A DNA stretch of 64,000 nucleotides from Escherichia phage TH09: the sequence record MT446387.1; one strand, 5' to 3'. Shown one piece after another: positions 1-9,290 of the stretch (positions are counted from its first letter, which is position 1; each line of letters opens with the position of its first letter). The position numbers and the translations under genes were made by a program. The notes below the pieces were generated by a model. It saw only the letters and a program-made list of their open reading frames with translations, was not told the DNA's origin and did not search any database.

Positions 1-1
1 T

Positions 2-229
2 GCGCTTTTGGTTGTTTTACTTATTATCGGTTCATTTGTTATTCCTGCACATTTGCATGAAAAATATAAAGATTATAAATGGAAAAAGGATTATGCTTTA
101 CACGTAGAAAATATTGATAGGGCGTATAAAGGTTTACCTCCTATTCAACCCAAGAAATCGGTTATCGTTGAATTTTTAAAAGCTCGTAAAGCTAAAGTAT
201 GTCCTGTTATTGAATATAAGGCTGAATGA
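2..229 (+). CDS. hypothetical protein, 5'-truncated at window edge
   Basis: Reading frame open from the first bases of the window; stop at 227-229. Confidence 0.35.
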   Translation, partial: ALLVVLLIIGSFVIPAHLHEKYKDYKWKKDYALHVENIDRAYKGLPPIQPKKSVIVEFLKARKAKVCPVIEYKAE

Positions 230-1239
230 TGAAAACAGTAATGAAAAGCTATTTTGGTAGTCATCTTTATGGAACTTCTACCCCAGAATCTGATGTAGAT
301 TTTAAAGAAATCTTTGTTCCTCCTGCTCGCGATATTCTTATCGGAAATGTCAAAGAGCACATGAGTAAAAACACTAACAACACATCATCTAAAAACACTA
401 AAGATGATATTGACCATGAACTATACAGTCTTAAATATTTCTTTAAATTAGCAGCAGATGGTGAAACTGTAGCGTTGGATATGCTTCACACTCCACCTGA
501 ACTAGTGGTTAAATCTGATTTGCCTGATGTGTGGAAGTTTATTCAAGACAACCGTTCTCGTTTTTATACGACTAACATGAAATCCTATTTAGGATATGTC
601 CGCAAGCAAGCTTCTAAATACGGTGTCAAGGGTTCTCGTTTGGCTGCATTACGTGATGTATTGAAAGTAGTTAATCAAATCCCCGAGCAATGGGTTGATT
701 ACCAAGAAGACGGTTCCATTAAGCAGCGTCGCACTAAAGTTGAAGATATTAAGCATCGTCTTCCAGAAAACGAATTCTGTGAATGGGTGTTCCATAATCA
801 TGAGAAAACAGGTCCACAAACGTTCTACACTGTATTGGGTCGTAAATATCAGACAACGCTTTCTCTTATTGAGCTTAAGCAGTCTTTGAATAAACTTGAT
901 GCTGAATACGGTGAACGTGCTCGTAAGGCCGAAGCCAATGAAGGCATTGATTGGAAAGCACTAAGTCATGCTTGTCGTGGTGGACTCCAACTATTGGAAA
1001 TTTACAAAACTGGTGACTTGGTTTATCCACTCAAAGATGCTCCATTTATTCTCGACGTGAAGTTGGGTAAACATCCATTTAAAACGGTTCAAGAGTTTTT
1101 GGAAGATGTGGTCGATCAAGTAGAAGCAGCATCTACTGAAGCTTCTAAGAACGGTATGCCTAAAACAGTAGACATGAGTTTCTGGGATGACTTCCTTGAG
1201 AAGGTCTATCTTGAAAACCACCGAAGTTATTATAAATGA
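226..1239 (+). CDS. nucleotidyltransferase-fold protein (Pol-beta superfamily motif), function unknown
   Basis: 337 aa; N-terminal FGSHLYGTSTPESDVDF matches the GS-x(9-13)-DxD NTase signature; terminator follows. Confidence 0.6.
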   Translation: MMKTVMKSYFGSHLYGTSTPESDVDFKEIFVPPARDILIGNVKEHMSKNTNNTSSKNTKDDIDHELYSLKYFFKLAADGETVALDMLHTPPELVVKSDLPDVWKFIQDNRSRFYTTNMKSYLGYVRKQASKYGVKGSRLAALRDVLKVVNQIPEQWVDYQEDGSIKQRRTKVEDIKHRLPENEFCEWVFHNHEKTGPQTFYTVLGRKYQTTLSLIELKQSLNKLDAEYGERARKAEANEGIDWKALSHACRGGLQLLEIYKTGDLVYPLKDAPFILDVKLGKHPFKTVQEFLEDVVDQVEAASTEASKNGMPKTVDMSFWDDFLEKVYLENHRSYYK

Positions 1240-1241
1240 TA

Positions 1242-1266
1242 GGGAGCCTTCGGGCTCCCTTTTTTA
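1242..1266 (+). terminator. rho-independent terminator
   Basis: GGGAGCC-ttcg-GGCTCCC hairpin followed by T-run. Confidence 0.6.
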
Positions 1267-1267
1267 T

Positions 1268-1325
1268 TTCAAAAATTTTTCACAAAACTGTTTACAAGCA
1301 TAAAGCTTTATGGTACTATACAACT
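1268..1325 (+). promoter_or_regulatory. T4-type early promoter
   Basis: AT-rich upstream element, GTTTACA (1290-1296), spacer, TGGTACTATA extended -10. Confidence 0.6.
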
Positions 1326-1357
1326 ATCAAAACAAATGAGTAAATTGGAGATACAAA

Positions 1358-1558
1358 ATGACTACTTTGAATAAACGTTTCGGTAAAGCTAAATCTGGGT
1401 GTGCAGCTGAACGTCGTTATGTTTTCGCTCAGTTAGAAGATGTAGAGTATCAGATTAATCAAGTTCACATTACTGGTATCGAGCCTATGTGTGGCCTTGA
1501 AGCTCTTCGTGAAGTTCGTGACGGGTATCGTCGTGCCATCGAAGAAATGTCAAAATAA
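1358..1558 (+). CDS. hypothetical protein
   Basis: 66 aa ORF with GGAG SD 8 nt upstream. Confidence 0.5.
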   Translation: MTTLNKRFGKAKSGCAAERRYVFAQLEDVEYQINQVHITGIEPMCGLEALREVRDGYRRAIEEMSK

Positions 1559-1615
1559 GTATACAAACTGATAGGACTATGTTATAGTAGTCCTATCAAA
1601 TCAAAGGAGAATAAA

Positions 1616-2584
1616 ATGAAAACTGTAACTATCAATAAGGGTATCTACTTCGGTAAAGAAATCTCTGGAACTTTTGAGCTCTTAGGTGAATGGTTCCCAG
1701 ATAATGCTCCGGTGGATGCACAAGGAGATGGTAAAGTTTTTGTTGAAATTGACGGTAAGCGTCGCGGTGTTTGGGTTTACAAATCAGACATTTCATATGA
1801 TGGTGTAAAAGTTGAAGAAGTTAAAGAATCATATGAAGATATGAAAACCCGCATTAATAAAAGATTTAATGTTATGGGAATGATGACGAATGGTATTATT
1901 AACGGAAACATTCGTTCATTAATTATCTCTGGTGCGGCAGGCATTGGTAAAACGTATTCTTTAGATAAAGCTTTAAATAAAGCAAATGATATTGGATACA
2001 TTGAATATAAAAGCATTAACGGTAAAATCTCTGGTATCGGTCTTTATGAACAGCTCTGGAATAATCGTGAAGAGAATTCTGTCCTTTTGATTGATGATGT
2101 GGATGTTTTCTCTGATATGGACATTCTTAATCTTTTGAAAGCTGCTCTGGACACTGGAGAGACCCGTAAAGTCTGCTGGAGCACTGCATCTTCTTACTTA
2201 GAAGAAAAAGGCATTGAGCGTGAGTTTGAATTTAAAGGAACGATTGTTTTTATCACAAACGTTGACATTGACCGCGAATTAGACCGTGGTACTAAACTTG
2301 CTCCACATTTACAAGCATTAGTTTCCCGCTCGGTTTATTTAGATTTGGGTGTTCACACTAATGAAGAAATTATGGTCAGGGTTGAAGATGTTATTCTTTC
2401 AACCGACATGATGCAAAAGCGTGGTCTTTCTGATGAAGAAACTTATAAAGCATTATCATGGATGAAAGTCAATGTTAATCGTTTACGCAATGTTTCACTG
2501 CGTACTGCTCTTTATCTTGCTGACTTTATTATGACCGACAAAAATGGTTGGGAAGAAATTGCTGAGGTTACTCTTCTGAAATAA
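1616..2584 (+). CDS. AAA+/P-loop ATPase, function unknown
   Basis: 322 aa; Walker A GAAGIGKT, Walker B LLIDDVD, sensor-1-like FITN; AAGGAG SD. Confidence 0.65.
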   Translation: MKTVTINKGIYFGKEISGTFELLGEWFPDNAPVDAQGDGKVFVEIDGKRRGVWVYKSDISYDGVKVEEVKESYEDMKTRINKRFNVMGMMTNGIINGNIRSLIISGAAGIGKTYSLDKALNKANDIGYIEYKSINGKISGIGLYEQLWNNREENSVLLIDDVDVFSDMDILNLLKAALDTGETRKVCWSTASSYLEEKGIEREFEFKGTIVFITNVDIDRELDRGTKLAPHLQALVSRSVYLDLGVHTNEEIMVRVEDVILSTDMMQKRGLSDEETYKALSWMKVNVNRLRNVSLRTALYLADFIMTDKNGWEEIAEVTLLK

Positions 2585-2685
2585 TTCATAAGAGGCCTTC
2601 TATGACAAAAAGGCAGTTCAGAAATAGATTATATGGACTGCCATTAAAAAGATGACTAGAATTAAACTGGTAAATGGAGGTAGTG

Positions 2686-2988
2686 ATGTTATACTCAAAG
2701 GCTCGTGAAATTTACGAAACTAAAATTAAAGAAGCAGTATTTCAGTTCGCAACAACGATGCGATGGACAAATGATTGGGAATACTCCAAGAATCATAAGA
2801 AGCCCTTGGTGACAAGAAAGGCTCATATGTTAGTGTTAATAGACCGTGAGCAGATTAAAGCCCGAGAAGCCCTCCAGAATCATAAAAAGGCTGCCTTTGA
2901 ATGGTTTATGGATAACACTGCTCCTGAGACTAAGAAAGCAGTGAGTGCGTGGTTCAGTGGAAAAAATTGTGAAAGAAGTTTCTTTTAG
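2686..2988 (+). CDS. hypothetical protein
   Basis: Track ORF 2674-2988; GGAGG SD favours ATG at 2686. Confidence 0.45.
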   Translation: MLYSKAREIYETKIKEAVFQFATTMRWTNDWEYSKNHKKPLVTRKAHMLVLIDREQIKAREALQNHKKAAFEWFMDNTAPETKKAVSAWFSGKNCERSFF

Positions 2989-3030
2989 TTGTTTACAATA
3001 CCGTTCCTCTGTGGTACTATACAACTATCA
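2975..3030 (+). promoter_or_regulatory. T4-type early promoter
   Basis: GTTTACA 2991-2997, TGGTACTAT -10 region; near-identical to cassette at 56060-56112. Confidence 0.6.
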
Positions 3031-3048
3031 ACTACGGAGGAACACAAA

Positions 3049-3576
3049 ATGAACGCTAAAGATATTTTCAACCTGGTAAATTACAACGATGGTAAATTTA
3101 AATCAGAAGCACAAAGCAAGTTCTTTAATGACATCTCAATTGGAGGTGAAATCACTGTTGATGGAGGACAAATTTACAAATCCCGTTGGAATTGGATCGT
3201 TATTATTGACGAGATCGGTATTGTAGAAATTTACAAGAATACGAATAAAAATCGTACATTACACTGGTCTCGTGATACTAACGAACAGTACAAAAAGGAT
3301 AAAGCATCTAAATTATCTCGTGTAACTCAAGAAGATATTGAGTTCATCAAGAAAGATATTTTGATGTATGATAACTTAATTGCTGAAGAGCAAGCTGTTA
3401 TTGATAAATTTGACGAGATTAAAGCTTCTCGTGAAATTCCTGATTTTATGAAAGAATCAGTAAATGAACGATACAATCTCATTTCAGAGCGTATTGAAAC
3501 TTACAAAAAGCAAAGAGCTGAACGCCAGAACACTCTTCGGAAGTTTGAAGAACGGTTAAAGACGGTACTCGCATAA
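3049..3576 (+). CDS. hypothetical protein with C-terminal coiled coil
   Basis: Track ORF starts inside promoter; ACGGAGG SD places start at 3049; heptad-like C-terminus. Confidence 0.55.
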   Translation: MNAKDIFNLVNYNDGKFKSEAQSKFFNDISIGGEITVDGGQIYKSRWNWIVIIDEIGIVEIYKNTNKNRTLHWSRDTNEQYKKDKASKLSRVTQEDIEFIKKDILMYDNLIAEEQAVIDKFDEIKASREIPDFMKESVNERYNLISERIETYKKQRAERQNTLRKFEERLKTVLA

Positions 3577-3631
3577 CCGCTTTATACCAAGGATGGTATA
3601 ATGGTTCTAAGCCCTTTTAATTGAGATTATT

Positions 3632-4039
3632 ATGAAACAGTTGATAATTAAAAGATTGAATTTATTGATATGTTGTTTATGTATAGCAATTGCATATGGT
3701 TATTATGCTATTAATGATTATATGCATTATAAAGATTATGATGTTACTGTAGTTAATACCTTTACAGGAACTCAAGGAAAGGGGTCTAGTTTATCGTTTA
3801 TTGCCGTATATGAACTAAATGACGGTTATAGATTTAGCGAATATATTTCACCGGAGATGTATTCTTCAATAGAAAAAGGTGATAATATTACTGTAAGTTT
3901 ACGTCCTTTCGACGTAAAACAGACATTGTTTGATAATATTGTTTGGTTCTTTGGAATGGTATTAGTTCAATCTGTGTGTGGTGCTTATATAGTCTGTTCC
4001 ATCTTATTCTGTATATTTAGTAAAATTGAAATTGAGTGA
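3632..4039 (+). CDS. hypothetical membrane protein
   Basis: 135 aa; hydrophobic N- and C-terminal segments. Confidence 0.5.
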   Translation: MKQLIIKRLNLLICCLCIAIAYGYYAINDYMHYKDYDVTVVNTFTGTQGKGSSLSFIAVYELNDGYRFSEYISPEMYSSIEKGDNITVSLRPFDVKQTLFDNIVWFFGMVLVQSVCGAYIVCSILFCIFSKIEIE

Positions 4040-4046
4040 GGAAAAT

Positions 4047-4934
4047 ATGTCAGTAGTAATTAATAATGTCAATGCAGTAATTAAATCTTTAGTTAATAAA
4101 AAATTGAATGAATGGACTGTACTTCGTCGTGGAGAGCCAGATAAATTTTTTCATAGATTTAACCCAACTTTGGATTTGAATGTTATTGACAGAGATGTTC
4201 ATGCAGAAATTTTAGATAAGTTTAAAGTTGATATTGGATTTGGATTAGAAAAACATTTACAGCGAACAAACGGATCTGGAATGAGTTTATCTAATCGCAT
4301 TATGAAAGCACTTAATAAAATTGGAGCATTGTCTCGTATTAACGCGAGTGAAATCCTTCGCAATTATAATAAAGGATACGACCTTTATGGTCGACTAATG
4401 CCGAAATTATCATTTGACCAAATGATTGCGGATTTGTGGGAAAATCAACGACGATTATTAGCATTAGGCGCTCGATTAGCTAAAGGTCTAGATAAACAAA
4501 TGATTTTTAAGACCAATAATACAGAAGACCTTAAATGCTTTAAATTTAGTATTCGCGGAGATGATTATTACATCAGAGCTCGCTCTACAGATTATGTTAA
4601 TATGGGGCATCATCTCTGTTTAGCTTTTGAAGTTTTAAAAGAAGTCGGAACATTAGAATATTCATCTGGTGCAAAATGTCCAATTGGTTCAAGTTGTATT
4701 TTAATTTATCGCCCGGATGAATCCAGTTCAACTAAATTGCCTACAAAACCTGTACCAGTTCGTAGTAACGAAAAACATTCTGAACAAATTGATTATTTTA
4801 ATAAGCAAATTGAAGAGCTGAATATTTCTATTCAACAGTATGACGATGAAATTTTCAGACTATCTGGATTGAGTAGTAAAGCTAAATCTGAGCGTGAAAA
4901 ATTAATTAAAATTGTTGATTTACTTAAATCTTAA
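4047..4934 (+). CDS. hypothetical protein with C-terminal coiled coil
   Basis: GAGGAAA SD before ATG 4047; C-terminal 45 aa heptad-like. Confidence 0.6.
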   Translation: MSVVINNVNAVIKSLVNKKLNEWTVLRRGEPDKFFHRFNPTLDLNVIDRDVHAEILDKFKVDIGFGLEKHLQRTNGSGMSLSNRIMKALNKIGALSRINASEILRNYNKGYDLYGRLMPKLSFDQMIADLWENQRRLLALGARLAKGLDKQMIFKTNNTEDLKCFKFSIRGDDYYIRARSTDYVNMGHHLCLAFEVLKEVGTLEYSSGAKCPIGSSCILIYRPDESSSTKLPTKPVPVRSNEKHSEQIDYFNKQIEELNISIQQYDDEIFRLSGLSSKAKSEREKLIKIVDLLKS

Positions 4935-4942
4935 GGAACACT

Positions 4943-5968
4943 ATGAAAACTCGTTCTCAAATTGAAGATATGGTTCGTAATGCCAGCTATACTCGTGATG
5001 TTATGACATTTTTGTGCCAAAATAATTTAGACCCTGATAAAGTTAATCGTGATATTCACTTTAAGTATATGAATAGCAGTGAATGGTTACGTCATTTTGA
5101 TAAAGCTGGATATATTACACAAATGACTGCTCGTGAGCAGCTCACCGATTTCTGTAAAACTATTGATTATAAAAATCCTCTATTTGTTCAAGGCGTCGGT
5201 CAGAGTAAGGTTGATTTATCAACAGGATTTTTTAATCCAAATCATTATCGTCTTGAATGGAGATTTATTGCTCTATTCCGTAAACAATTAAAGCAAATTT
5301 TGTCTACTGCTAGTCGATTAAAAGGCTCTGATATTAACTTAAAGAATTTGAAATTTGATGGTTATACTCTTCAGATGGAAGTAAGACCGTTAAAAGAAAA
5401 TAATAGAACTGCACGAATTAGCTTTAAACCTAATACAAAAAATTCTCTTTCAATTTGTGAATGTCTTAAATCACAGTTGACAGAAGCATTTAAGTATATG
5501 GATGTTGTTGCTGCTGTTCAATCTAAGATTTTACCTCGTTTTGAACGATTTAAATTAGACACAACAACATATGAACTTGATATGGTTGTTTCATTTAAAT
5601 ATGATTTTTTGAGAAAGGACGAAGTCCCGCAAGAGAAAAAGCAGGAAGTACAAGATAACTTAAATTTAAATTTATCCAATTACTTATCAAACGATCCTAA
5701 ATTTTGGATGTATAGTTCAGGTAATAAAGATGCATGGAAATTTAATAAAGTGAATTTTCTTCCTATTGAAAATCCGAGTCTTAAACCTGTTGAAAAATGG
5801 CATGCAGATGCGATTGAGAAGTCTATCAAGGCAGTAGATGATGAACTCGTTAAAGCAACTAATGAAGTGCTAGAAGCTGAAAAGATGTTGGAAAAAGCTC
5901 AAGAAAAAGTCAAAAATCTTACGAAGCAACGTTCTAAACTGAACAATGCACTAAATGCACTGAACTAG
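4943..5968 (+). CDS. hypothetical protein with C-terminal coiled coil
   Basis: 341 aa; AAGGAA SD; coiled-coil tail. Confidence 0.6.
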   Translation: MKTRSQIEDMVRNASYTRDVMTFLCQNNLDPDKVNRDIHFKYMNSSEWLRHFDKAGYITQMTAREQLTDFCKTIDYKNPLFVQGVGQSKVDLSTGFFNPNHYRLEWRFIALFRKQLKQILSTASRLKGSDINLKNLKFDGYTLQMEVRPLKENNRTARISFKPNTKNSLSICECLKSQLTEAFKYMDVVAAVQSKILPRFERFKLDTTTYELDMVVSFKYDFLRKDEVPQEKKQEVQDNLNLNLSNYLSNDPKFWMYSSGNKDAWKFNKVNFLPIENPSLKPVEKWHADAIEKSIKAVDDELVKATNEVLEAEKMLEKAQEKVKNLTKQRSKLNNALNALN

Positions 5969-6000
5969 TTTACTTTGCCACAAGGATGTGGTATAATGTT
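5960..6000 (+). promoter_or_regulatory. T4-type early promoter
   Basis: GTTTACT 5968-5974, TGTGGTATAAT 5987-5997. Confidence 0.6.
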
Positions 6001-6025
6001 CTTACTTTCTACTGAGGAGATTAAT

Positions 6026-7027
6026 ATGACTCGTAACGAATATATCAAATCATTCAATAGCGTTATTGATGATAAAGCTATACCGATGTTTGGTCAAAAT
6101 ATCGTTCTTTCTATTATCAATCAATGGCTCAATAGTGTTGATGCAAGTATTGTTTCTTCTACTAAATTTATTCATGAAATTCGTAAAATTTCTAGCCGTG
6201 TAGATAAAGATGTTATCAAGAAAACTTTTAAAGAGTCTCGTCTTCTTTCATATTTGGTTAATCGGGATATTCTTGGTAATTTTGGGAAAGAAATTAAACG
6301 AACCAAAGATGTAGTAGGATATAATTGGTTCGGTGATGTTAATTCTTATCATCTTAATAATAAAGAAGACCCTGAGAATATTTTTACTCGTCGTTGGATT
6401 AGTAATTTCAGACTTTTCAAAGGACAAATTCTAAAATCAGCTTCTAAATTATGTTATGGCGATTATCGTCAAATTCATCCTTTGGCTTCTGATATGATTA
6501 TCGTAAAAGAATATGAGCTTGATGAAAATAAAGTAGCTATTTTTGTGAATTATGGATTTTTTACACCAAACGCTAACCAAAAGAATATTAATAAATTTTT
6601 CTCAATTGCTAGCACTATAACTCGTCAGTTAGAGACTGCATTACTTTGTATGGAAACAGTAGAAAATATTCATACATATCCTTTTAAGAATATATGCGGA
6701 TGGGAAGGATATAAAATTGTAATTAGTCTTCGTGAAGTGAAATGTGCTTATTCACTGACTGATAAAGAAATTTACCAACAAAAATGTGATGAAATTGTGA
6801 ATACTCCTAAAGAAGAAACTACCCTTGAGGAATTAATGGAATGTCTTGACGATTCACCTGAATCGGTAGAAATTCGTCCAGAAGTTATTGCACTAGAAAA
6901 AGCTTATAAAGAAGTTCTAGAAATTTCTAATAAAGCGCAGAAAGAATATGAGCAGGCTAAAAAGATTTGGGAAGAATCTGTCAATCGCTTGGATCGTCTT
7001 GAACAAGCTTTACAGTTAATTAAGTAA
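6026..7027 (+). CDS. hypothetical protein with C-terminal coiled coil
   Basis: Track ORF 5975 overlaps promoter; GAGGAG SD places start at 6026. Confidence 0.6.
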   Translation: MTRNEYIKSFNSVIDDKAIPMFGQNIVLSIINQWLNSVDASIVSSTKFIHEIRKISSRVDKDVIKKTFKESRLLSYLVNRDILGNFGKEIKRTKDVVGYNWFGDVNSYHLNNKEDPENIFTRRWISNFRLFKGQILKSASKLCYGDYRQIHPLASDMIIVKEYELDENKVAIFVNYGFFTPNANQKNINKFFSIASTITRQLETALLCMETVENIHTYPFKNICGWEGYKIVISLREVKCAYSLTDKEIYQQKCDEIVNTPKEETTLEELMECLDDSPESVEIRPEVIALEKAYKEVLEISNKAQKEYEQAKKIWEESVNRLDRLEQALQLIK

Positions 7028-7079
7028 TTTAAAGCCAAGGATGGCTCGGAGCATAAATCATTAACCAAGTGAGAAGAAC

Positions 7080-8009
7080 ATGAAAACTCGTAAACATTAC
7101 ATTGATTATTTTGACAGTCTTATTACTAAACATCGTAATTATCAGATCGGACACAGAGCAGTAATCAATAATATTCTTCGTGATTTCCTTCAATATGTTG
7201 GCCAGGAAAATCATATCTGTAAAGATACTCAAAACGCTTATTCTCATTCGTTAGGTAATTTGCTTGAATGGTTTAAACGTTCTCGTATGTTATCTTCTAC
7301 TGTAGCTCACGATAACATTAAAAACTTTATGAAGCCGAGCTTTATTAAATCTGAGACATCTATAACCGATTTGGTTGAATTTACTATTGTTAACGATGTT
7401 AAAAAGACTCATTTGGCTGATTGGTTATCTACCATTCCTGAAACTAAATTTGCTGATAAATTTGCTTGTCAATTCAATGACCAAGTGAATATGCTTTTTA
7501 AGCATGCTCGCAAACTGTTTACCGCGGGTGATGACCGTACAAATACAGTTCATGTTAAGGACTGGGTTATTGCTGATGAAGTAACACACAAGCCAGGTGG
7601 TTCATCAGTATTAATTAATATCCAGGTTCCTTATTATTACTCACGTAATCTCGGCACCATGACAGCTAAAGAAATTAATAAGCACAACAAAACTATTCGT
7701 TCGTTGTCTTATAAACTCCGCATGATGTTAAAAATTATGGACGTAGTGGAAATGTATGACGAAACCGAAGATAATGGTTCAATGTTATACAGTTCACGCA
7801 TTCTAATTAAACTGAAGAACCCTAATACATATAAGACAGTTGTAAAAGAGCCTAAAGTAGAAAAGGTTGATAATCTGAGTGAAGAACGTGAATATCTCAA
7901 TGCCCGTTTGATTGAAGTTGAAGCCCAAATTGCAGAACACACCAAATTGTTAAAAGCTCTTAATGCAAAAGCAAATGGTTTACGTAATGCTATTGAGGTA
8001 TTGAAATGA
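7080..8009 (+). CDS. hypothetical protein with C-terminal coiled coil
   Basis: 309 aa; coiled-coil tail. Confidence 0.6.
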   Translation: MKTRKHYIDYFDSLITKHRNYQIGHRAVINNILRDFLQYVGQENHICKDTQNAYSHSLGNLLEWFKRSRMLSSTVAHDNIKNFMKPSFIKSETSITDLVEFTIVNDVKKTHLADWLSTIPETKFADKFACQFNDQVNMLFKHARKLFTAGDDRTNTVHVKDWVIADEVTHKPGGSSVLINIQVPYYYSRNLGTMTAKEINKHNKTIRSLSYKLRMMLKIMDVVEMYDETEDNGSMLYSSRILIKLKNPNTYKTVVKEPKVEKVDNLSEEREYLNARLIEVEAQIAEHTKLLKALNAKANGLRNAIEVLK

Positions 8010-8395
8010 AAAAGCGTTTATTAGAAGACATTGCAGCTTCAAGTAATTCCAGTTTAATTAAAATTATTATGGCTGGTGAGGAAGATGATATGGAAATGCG
8101 TGGAAAGATTCACGGCTGCGACGATTTAGATTTTAAACCTCCAGCATGGGATGCTATTATGGTTATGGTTGAACGACGTGAAAGAGCTTCTAAAAACGTT
8201 CCTAATTGCCCTGAATGCGGTACTGAACAAGTTCAATTGATTAACTGGCGTAAACCAGAGCTTGAATATAAATGCCGTCAATGTAAACATAAATTCAGTA
8301 AGCATGCTCCGGAAATGGTTAAATTGCCTGACTCTACTGAGTTCTTTAAAGAACTTGTGAGTGTTCAACCAATGCCTAATAATATTTTGGATTAA
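8006..8395 (+). CDS. zinc-ribbon protein
   Basis: 129 aa; CPECG...CRQC motif; ATGA overlap with upstream stop. Confidence 0.55.
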
Positions 8396-8397
8396 AA

Positions 8398-8640
8398 ATG
8401 ACCAAGCGTAAAGAATATATGGAGACTGCTGAAAAGGCAGTCCGTGAATTAGCAATAGCTTATTATAATGAACACGGTAAATTTCCTGATAGATGCAGCG
8501 TGCTTAAATCTGCTTTAACTCGTTCATACAAAAATATGCTATCAGAAGTAAGTGATATTATATACAAACATAAAGAACAAACAGGCCAAAGTCTTGATTA
8601 CGATGAGACTTTTAAACAAGTACTAGGAATTAAGGAATAA
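8398..8640 (+). CDS. hypothetical protein
   Basis: 80 aa ORF packed between neighbours. Confidence 0.5.
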
Positions 8641-8641
8641 T

Positions 8642-8905
8642 ATGTTTAAAGTATATGGTTATGATAGCAACATCCATAAATGTGTGTATTGTGATAATGC
8701 AAAGCGTCTTTTGACCGTGAAGAAACAGCCGTTTGAATTTATCAACATTATGCCGGAAAAAGGTGTTTTTGATGATGAGAAAATCGCTGAGCTTCTGACT
8801 AAACTAGGTCGTGATACTCAAATCGGCTTGACAATGCCCCAGGTATTTGCTCCTGATGGAAGTCATATTGGTGGATTTGACCAACTGCGAGAATATTTTA
8901 AATGA
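8642..8905 (+). CDS. nrdC: thioredoxin NrdC
   Basis: 87 aa; recognised as T4 NrdC; CVYC active site. Confidence 0.9.
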   Translation: MFKVYGYDSNIHKCVYCDNAKRLLTVKKQPFEFINIMPEKGVFDDEKIAELLTKLGRDTQIGLTMPQVFAPDGSHIGGFDQLREYFK

Positions 8906-9117
8906 TGCTCGAAGGAACTGACTATATTCATGATTACCGCGGAAGCGCGGTATATGTAGGTGATGAAGTTGCAGTTTATTATGGGTATGGAACTTTGATG
9001 ACAGCCAAGGTTATTCAAATTAAAAATAACCGTGCTAAACTTGAAGTTTATTATTCTAATGGCGAAAAGTCTATTTCTAAGTGGAAATATGGCGATTGTA
9101 TGGTTAAACTGGGGTAA
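8902..9117 (+). CDS. hypothetical protein
   Basis: 71 aa; start overlaps nrdC stop. Confidence 0.5.
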   Translation: MMLEGTDYIHDYRGSAVYVGDEVAVYYGYGTLMTAKVIQIKNNRAKLEVYYSNGEKSISKWKYGDCMVKLG

Positions 9118-9119
9118 AT

Positions 9120-9290
9120 ATGATTTACGATATTAGTGTATCAAGAACTCCGTCAATGGTTACTATTCCAGCCGAAGAACTAGATCGTCTTCAGAAAATT
9201 GAAGAACTTCTTTGGGAAATTGAATGTGACCTGCCATCGGGGCTAGAATCCTGGATTGATGATGAAGAACTTAATAAATTGCGAAATTAA
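9120..9290 (+). CDS. small acidic hypothetical protein
   Basis: 56-codon ORF below track cutoff; ATG 3 nt after upstream stop. Confidence 0.3.
   Translation: MIYDISVSRTPSMVTIPAEELDRLQKIEELLWEIECDLPSGLESWIDDEELNKLRN

Follow-up and report, generated by a model that had tools for sequence, protein, structure and literature searches.

Which reaction is catalyzed by the nucleotidyltransferase-like protein encoded near the left edge of a 64,000-nucleotide (nt) stretch of the genome of Escherichia phage TH09 (sequence record MT446387.1; the whole stretch is referred to as the window), and to which family does it belong? The open reading frame (ORF) at positions 226–1239 of the plus strand encodes 337 amino acids (aa) from the ATG at position 226. 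In an initial annotation, the product was assigned to the Pol-beta superfamily of nucleotidyltransferases (NTases) on the basis of a GS/DxD signature, and a decision between minimal NTases, antibiotic NTases and cGAS/DncV-like enzymes was considered impossible from the sequence. The superfamily assignment was borne out here. The family could be identified and is none of these three: the gene is the ortholog of phage T4 nrdC.11, and its product is almost certainly a member of the RlaP family (Pfam PF10127, 'RNA repair pathway DNA polymerase beta family'; COG3541).

226–1239, plus strand: coding sequence of the T4 nrdC.11 ortholog, a long-form RlaP nucleotidyltransferase (T4 identity, PF10127, PHROG 388)

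The assignment was based on three lines of evidence. First, hundreds of Tequatrovirus (T4-like) genomes matched the first 6 kb of the window with 97–99% identity, and the protein shared 327/336 residues (97%) with T4 NrdC.11 (NP_049709), which carries the RefSeq product name 'nucleotidyltransferase'. The T4 gene occupies the same genome position, at the start of the gene run from nrdC.11 to nrdC. Second, the protein matched Pfam PF10127 with 43.8 bits (cutoff 23; E = 3.2e-11) over residues 7–135 only, i.e., positions 23–142 of the 249 model positions, and PHROG 388 ('nucleotidyltransferase') with E = 7e-138. Third, when a profile of 52 NrdC.11-type sequences was aligned by hhalign with a profile of three short RlaPs (252–269 aa), a probability of 99.8% and E = 7e-28 were obtained over columns 8–320 versus 19–248. 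This alignment spanned both domains and was interrupted by a single large insertion of the long form (residues ~145–236 unaligned). In addition, a 338-aa relative from Deferribacter matched the PF10127 model end to end. Since the profile alignment covered both domains and the Deferribacter protein matched the complete model, NrdC.11 is regarded as a bona fide RlaP with an insertion of about 90 aa. Membership of the gene in this named and recently characterised family had already been recognised, and both the family assignment and the repair hypothesis discussed below have been published (PMC7824862, PMC12776372); Nolan et al. (2006) had matched nrdC.11 to the COG3541 nucleotidyltransferase (PMC1524935).

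Residues 10–26 of the protein (FGSHLYGTSTPESDVDF) comprise G11-S12, ten further residues and D23-x-D25. By itself, this motif is weak evidence, since the loose pattern G[GS]x9-13Dx[DE] was present in 8.5% and the strict pattern hG[GS]x9-13Dh[DE]h in 0.65% of shuffles of the NrdC.11-ortholog sequence. The case for an NTase is made instead by conservation, by profile matches and by structure. Conservation was determined in 147 full-length relatives (36–58% identity) and in an alignment combining 60 long with 16 short RlaPs (joint alignment). The conserved motif residues are located as follows:

256–261, plus strand: G11-S12 of hG[GS] (both 100% in the 147 relatives; G in 16/16 and S in 15/16 short RlaPs)
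292–300, plus strand: D23-V24-D25, the metal-binding DxD pair (99% in the 147 relatives, invariant across the joint alignment), where strand 24–31 begins
412–414, plus strand: D63 ('DDIDHE'), probable third catalytic Asp, on strand 62–68 (97% D and 3% E in the 147 relatives; D in 60/60 long and 16/16 short RlaPs)
478–480, plus strand: D85 (VALDMLH), fourth conserved acid, on helix 81–87 (97% D in the long forms, E in 15/16 short RlaPs)

Thus, the GS and DxD positions were kept in 99–100% of the relatives, as anticipated for a catalytic signature. Conservation in the same relatives was also high for N57 (99%) and D61 (95%), and complete for Y132, H248, R251 and P268 (each 100%). In the joint alignment, G11, S12, S22, D23, D25, D63, K244, R251, P268 and K279 were common to long and short RlaPs. 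N57, D61 and the motif Y228-G-x-R-A were specific for the long form, and at the position of H248 short forms mostly have Y.

In the 2009 classification of Kuchta et al., the third carboxylate of Pol-beta-fold NTases reportedly lies on a strand next to the one bearing DxD. For RlaP, three aspartic acids have been described as strictly conserved (PMC12776372). Because of its strand position, its invariance and these three aspartic acids, D63 is the best candidate for the third carboxylate. The initial annotation had proposed the acid within VALDMLH (residues 82–88), but D85 lies on a helix and is replaced by E in almost all short RlaPs. As judged from the predicted model, the third catalytic Asp most likely is D63, with D85 as a fourth conserved acid.

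An AlphaFold2 model calculated from 115 aligned sequences had a mean predicted local distance difference test score (pLDDT) of 87.9 and a predicted template modelling score (pTM) of 0.73. The NTase fold was obtained, as the initial annotation had expected, and the protein was divided into three parts:

226–630, plus strand: N-terminal Pol-beta-fold NTase domain, residues 1–135 (model strands 3–10, 24–31, 45–49 and 62–68; helices 12–15, 69–77 and 81–87)
658–933, plus strand: insertion of the long RlaPs, residues ~145–236 (unaligned in the hhalign comparison of long and short forms; secondary structure from AlphaFold2)
934–1236, plus strand: C-terminal helical domain, residues 237–337, with K244, H248 and R251 (nt 955–978), P268 and K279

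In the model, the insertion forms a small beta subdomain (strands 155–209) followed by a long helix that ends in the conserved Y228-G229-x-R231-A232. It was found in all 147 relatives, with a mean gap fraction of 0.14. The C-terminal domain is homologous to that of the short RlaPs and resembles helical bundles of the HEPN/KNTase-C type. A fold search against predicted viral structures yielded full-length matches with template modelling scores of about 0.6–0.7 to phage 'nucleotidyltransferases', and in a fold search of the PDB the nearest solved neighbours were NTase-fold proteins.

The closest of these was HalB of the Hailong anti-phage system (PDB 9dbh, 9dbj), with 16% identity. HalB is a tetramer of a 217-aa protein, performs protein-primed (Tyr) oligo-dA synthesis and is paired with the HalA channel (PMC13434031). 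A HalB-like NrdC.11 would synthesize DNA or oligonucleotides, de novo or on a 3' end, and the product might replenish or mimic an inhibitory host signal. This explanation is very improbable. Neither a HalA-like partner nor a Hailong-related context was found in the surveyed neighbourhoods, and there was no PADLOC match (PADLOC-DB v2.0.0, 2023; it was left unchecked whether Hailong models are included). The RlaPs of Pseudomonas fluorescens (PfRlaP) and P. aeruginosa (PaRlaP) do not extend DNA (PMC12776372). In addition, the top rank of HalB may reflect the lack of an RlaP structure in the PDB copy searched, in which sequence searches with the single protein and with the 52-sequence profile retrieved no relevant chain and no RlaP. 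The structure of PfRlaP was solved by Carruthers, Fatma and Huang (bioRxiv, December 2025; PMC12776372).

Two further explanations were considered. NrdC.11 might nucleotidylylate a protein or a small molecule like KNTase/ANT, LinB, GlnE, DrrA or MntA, e.g., by AMPylation of a host or phage factor. Its resemblance to these enzymes was confined to the fold, with 9–13% identity and no matched Pfam or NCBIfam model, and its homology to RlaP in the profile alignment was far stronger. Kanamycin nucleotidyltransferase/ANT(4') and related antibiotic NTases, whose substrates are small molecules, shared 9–12% identity. MNT/MntA proteins are minimal NTases of about 100–150 aa with a HEPN partner, in contrast to the 337 aa with a fused helical domain found here; the NCBIfam MntA model scored 13.2 bits against a cutoff of 60, and NTP_transf_2 remained under its cutoff (E = 0.09). 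Since PfRlaP and PaRlaP also left E. coli proteins unlabelled (PMC12776372), nucleotidylylation of proteins or small molecules is improbable. With a cGAS/DncV-like enzyme, a cyclic or linear signalling nucleotide would be made, or decoyed against CBASS-type immunity. The Pol-beta fold and the GS/DxD signature are shared with such enzymes, but these features are superfamily-wide. There was no Pfam match to CD-NTase/SMODS at E ≤ 1 and no PADLOC match, and no cGAS, OAS or CD-NTase was among the best PDB fold matches listed; this explanation is extremely improbable. Thus, these rivals lack positive support beyond fold resemblance. Of the activities considered in the initial annotation, nucleic acid modification is the best supported, in keeping with the RlaP family, and no evidence was found for a signalling nucleotide.

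What RlaPs do is known from the two Pseudomonas enzymes. PfRlaP and PaRlaP add one or two nucleoside monophosphates (NMPs) to the 3'-OH ends of RNA, prefer Mn2+, accept all nucleoside triphosphates (NTPs) as well as dATP, and are inert towards DNA and protein (PMC12776372). On a mimic of a cleaved tRNA, they favour the end proximal to the nick, and aminoacylation of a tRNA short of one anticodon-loop nucleotide was partly rescued by RlaP (PMC12776372). The product retains a 3'-OH and is usable by 5'-phosphate ligases such as T4 Rnl1 and Rnl2 (PMC12776372). The Pseudomonas RlaPs fall into cluster 1a of the PF10127 sequence similarity network (SSN) and share with NrdC.11 the Pfam family, the N-terminal NTase and C-terminal helical domains and the set of GS, DxD and third Asp; this comparison was made via other short RlaPs (252–269 aa) as stand-ins. 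NrdC.11 differs by its position in SSN cluster 5, by its location outside an RtcB operon and, relative to the short stand-ins, by the insertion of about 90 aa. T4 NrdC.11 itself is marked 'RlaP of unknown function' in cluster 5 (PMC12776372).

By analogy, NrdC.11 would be a template-independent Pol-beta-fold nucleotidyltransferase in which D23, D25 and D63 hold two divalent metal ions and which would move one or two NMPs from NTPs to an RNA 3'-OH. Such an addition is likely, as extrapolated from the two distant family members. The enzyme would act as an accessory to the phage tRNA repair pathway in four steps. First, a host ribotoxin would cut a tRNA and trim a nucleotide, as in the case of RloC, by which the wobble base is excised. 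Second, the phage polynucleotide kinase-phosphatase would strip the 2',3'-cyclic or 3' phosphate, leaving the 3'-OH required by RlaP. Third, NrdC.11 would restore a nucleotide. Fourth, a 5'-phosphate RNA ligase (Rnl1 or Rnl2) would seal the break, and a fraction of functional tRNA would be regained. A corresponding role had been predicted by Iyer et al. (2021), who found RlaP to be the most prevalent NTase of jumbo phages and proposed that phage RlaP replaces nucleotides lost from cleaved RNA ahead of ligation (PMC7824862). The explanation as a whole, i.e., addition of NMPs to RNA 3' ends in tRNA repair, is somewhat favoured here. For its narrower part, repair against nucleotide-excising ribotoxins with damaged tRNA as the in vivo target, the chances are judged to be about even.

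The gene neighbourhoods of full-length relatives (33–54% identity) were surveyed with regard to such a role. In viral contig L083 (53.7 kb), an NrdC.11-type RlaP (43% identity) is followed by an RNA ligase (PF09414, 433 aa) and a Pnkp with kinase and phosphatase domains (AAA_33 and HAD_PNKP, 295 aa) at 6001–9176. On an Asticcacaulis plasmid (L088), the gene order is Hen1, Pnkp, NrdC.11-type gene and short RlaP, with the RlaP pair at 5001–6790. On a Deferribacter megaplasmid (L089), RtcB is encoded 2.5 kb upstream of the NrdC.11-type gene. In the cellular survey, 156 relatives were found, 80 loci were kept and 70 were analysed by domain scans of the neighbours, with the following counts:

Short RlaP directly downstream: 13/70 cellular loci
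Bacterial Pnkp as neighbour: 5/70 cellular loci
Hen1 as neighbour: 2/70 cellular loci
RtcB as neighbour: 2/70 cellular loci
RtcA as neighbour: 2/70 cellular loci
Ro60/TROVE as neighbour: 2/70 cellular loci

Thus, the RNA-repair neighbourhood that gave RlaP its name recurs within the NrdC.11-type clade itself. In the domain scans of viral loci, HD, Pnkp and RNA-ligase neighbours occurred only sporadically, and BLAST clustering of the neighbours in 45 diverse viral loci revealed no dominant partner gene. A metallophosphatase gene was located two genes upstream in one viral contig family.

An HD-domain phosphohydrolase gene was found immediately 3' of the NrdC.11-type gene in six mostly phage-like contigs, at these positions:

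L077, 6909–7421; L078, 6923–7432; L085, 6926–7420: HD gene downstream
L006, 6939–7445; L007, 1913–2371; L008, 2479–2910: HD gene downstream

In bacterial CCA-adding enzymes, an NTase is fused to an HD phosphohydrolase. The downstream HD protein may, by analogy with this layout, be a 3'-end-healing partner. These genes also bear on the possibility that NrdC.11 acts on RNA 3' ends outside anticodon-loop repair, e.g., in mending or re-extension of the tRNA acceptor (CCA) end, in tailing of phage or host RNAs that changes their stability or in MenT-like tailing of host tRNAs that stops host translation. In its favour, RlaPs given total E. coli RNA in vitro labelled tRNAs and rRNAs of full length, with little NTP specificity (PMC12776372). 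Class II (HD) CCA-adding enzymes are functional analogues, which add nucleotides to the tRNA 3'-OH without a template, but their CCA specificity is fixed, in contrast to the one or two NMPs added with little NTP specificity by RlaPs (PMC12776372), and no sequence match to them was found. No CCA-adding or poly(A) polymerase family (PolyA_pol head domain) was among the Pfam matches at E ≤ 1. According to Deutscher, Foulds and McClain (1974), some T4 tRNAs reportedly still require the host CCA enzyme, which speaks against a CCA activity of the phage. The recurrent neighbours ligase, Pnkp, Hen1 and RtcB point to break repair rather than end maintenance, and an RNA-end function outside anticodon-loop repair is unlikely.

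Several observations weigh against the favoured explanation as a whole. No RNA repair gene lies beside nrdC.11 in the window or in T4-like genomes, and neither flanking gene matches such a family. Two RNA ligases and a polynucleotide kinase are encoded by phage R5505 (97% identity in the first 6 kb), but 54–85 kb away from nrdC.11. The downstream gene nrdC.10, which follows beyond a terminator and a 66-aa ORF, codes for an uncharacterised P-loop protein that is syntenic only. With regard to the protein, the Pfam model matched no more than the N-terminal 135 residues, and the insertion together with the co-occurrence of long and short forms in one operon indicates that the substrate or specificity of the long form may differ. 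Non-templated addition gives the correct nucleotide in only a fraction of repair events (PMC12776372). Finally, nrdC.11 is dispensable for T4 on laboratory E. coli and lies within a fragment lost from genome-reduced T4 (PMC9825161); mutant clone T4_7t1 keeps only the last 39 codons of the gene. This dispensability fits an accessory counter-defence role without lending it positive support.

Long and short RlaPs differ in distribution. The tandem of a long and a short RlaP gene on the same strand seen in 13 of the 70 cellular loci (e.g., L097, L099, L106, L114, L147) includes short RlaPs of about 250–290 aa, and the Asticcacaulis pair lies within a Hen1-Pnkp operon. This tandem arrangement suggests that the two forms are not redundant. 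A second, short RlaP in T4-like phages was considered and dropped: with a short RlaP as tblastn query, 80 phage records were matched, none of them from an Escherichia phage, and among the 25 matches listed almost all were from genomes of more than 250 kb. T4-like phages carry the long form only. It is conceivable, if doubtful, that the insertion of about 90 aa with its beta subdomain and YGxRA helix marks a long RlaP subfamily functionally distinct from the short RlaPs. The long form might then recognise a specific lesion, e.g., an anticodon loop without the wobble nucleotide, or select the added nucleotide. If so, NrdC.11 would be the counter-measure that T4 is missing against 'nucleotide-excising' anticodon nucleases of the RloC type.

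For tRNA repair by Pnkp and Rnl1 against PrrC, T4-like phages serve as the classic model. The harsher lesion left by RloC, which removes the wobble nucleotide, has been proposed to defy repair by phages, and whether a phage can reverse it has been a question since 2008 (PMC2610378). As the restorer of the lost nucleotide, NrdC.11 is an obvious candidate. A precise identity is also given to a gene often recorded as 'hypothetical protein' or, wrongly, as 'thioredoxin' owing to the nrdC.x names.

Relatives of NrdC.11 are widespread. By tblastn, a relative, mostly of full length, was found in 1,518 of 50,697 phage records, mainly from T4-like phages of Escherichia, Klebsiella, Aeromonas, Acinetobacter, Vibrio, Caulobacter and Sinorhizobium. 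Among 1.84 billion cluster representatives, 3,497 relatives were retrieved at E ≤ 1e-3, of which 835 reached E ≤ 1e-30; the best 150 of these matches aligned nearly end to end. In many GenBank and UniRef records for orthologs of genes at 226–6000 of the window, NrdC.11 and other nrdC.x proteins are labelled 'thioredoxin', and in one record NrdC.11 is labelled 'HNH homing endonuclease'. These labels look like name-propagation errors derived from the gene symbol nrdC. Full-length NrdC.11-type homologs (37–41% identity) were also found on contigs binned to archaeal metagenome-assembled genomes of Bathyarchaeota, Methanolobus, Woesearchaeota and Thermoplasmatota (L096, L127, L128, L143); these contigs may be of viral or prophage origin.

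In the window, two in-frame start codons are available for nrdC.11. The start region reads gaATGATGaaa and is overlapped by the TGA stop codon (227–229) of the upstream gene. Translation from the alternative ATG at 229 would yield 336 aa; this start is annotated for T4 NrdC.11 and most database orthologs. The signals flanking the gene are:

218–221, plus strand: Shine-Dalgarno-like AAGG, 4 nt 5' of ATG 226 and 7 nt 5' of ATG 229 (read from the sequence)
1241–1270, plus strand: intrinsic terminator (stem-loop 1241–1260 with an 8-bp stem including 6 GC pairs and a CTTCGG loop, then a T-run)

The terminator begins 2 nt past the nrdC.11 stop codon, and phage R5505 has an annotated terminator at the same place. 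Because the terminator directly follows the stop codon, nrdC.11 stands last in its transcription unit. A promoter-like site is present downstream of it at 1291–1319.

The nrdC.10 ortholog (1616–2584, plus strand; 322 aa) belongs to PHROG 1250, of unknown function, and showed only weak P-loop/AAA-like matches (AAA_14, AAA_22, nSTAND3), all under the Pfam cutoff. A functional link between nrdC.11 and nrdC.10 was considered and dropped: the genes were co-located in only 30 of the 78 viral loci, and these 30 all belong to close T4-like relatives (at least 52% identity). Since only such close relatives share this arrangement and a terminator intervenes, the proximity of the two genes is regarded as synteny and not as coupling.

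The surroundings of the gene differ from those in T4. Upstream, an ORF (1–229, plus strand) that continues past the left edge of the window matches PHROG 22816 and PHROG 944 ('membrane protein'). In T4, nrdC.11 is directly preceded by mobD, an HNH homing-endonuclease gene that is absent from this site here and in R5505. Downstream, the gap between nrdC.11 and nrdC.10 is 376 nt, as compared with 114 nt in T4, where no gene is annotated in it. Here, this gap contains a 66-aa ORF (1358–1558, plus strand; PHROG 6200, function unknown), and the same small gene is annotated in phage R5505.

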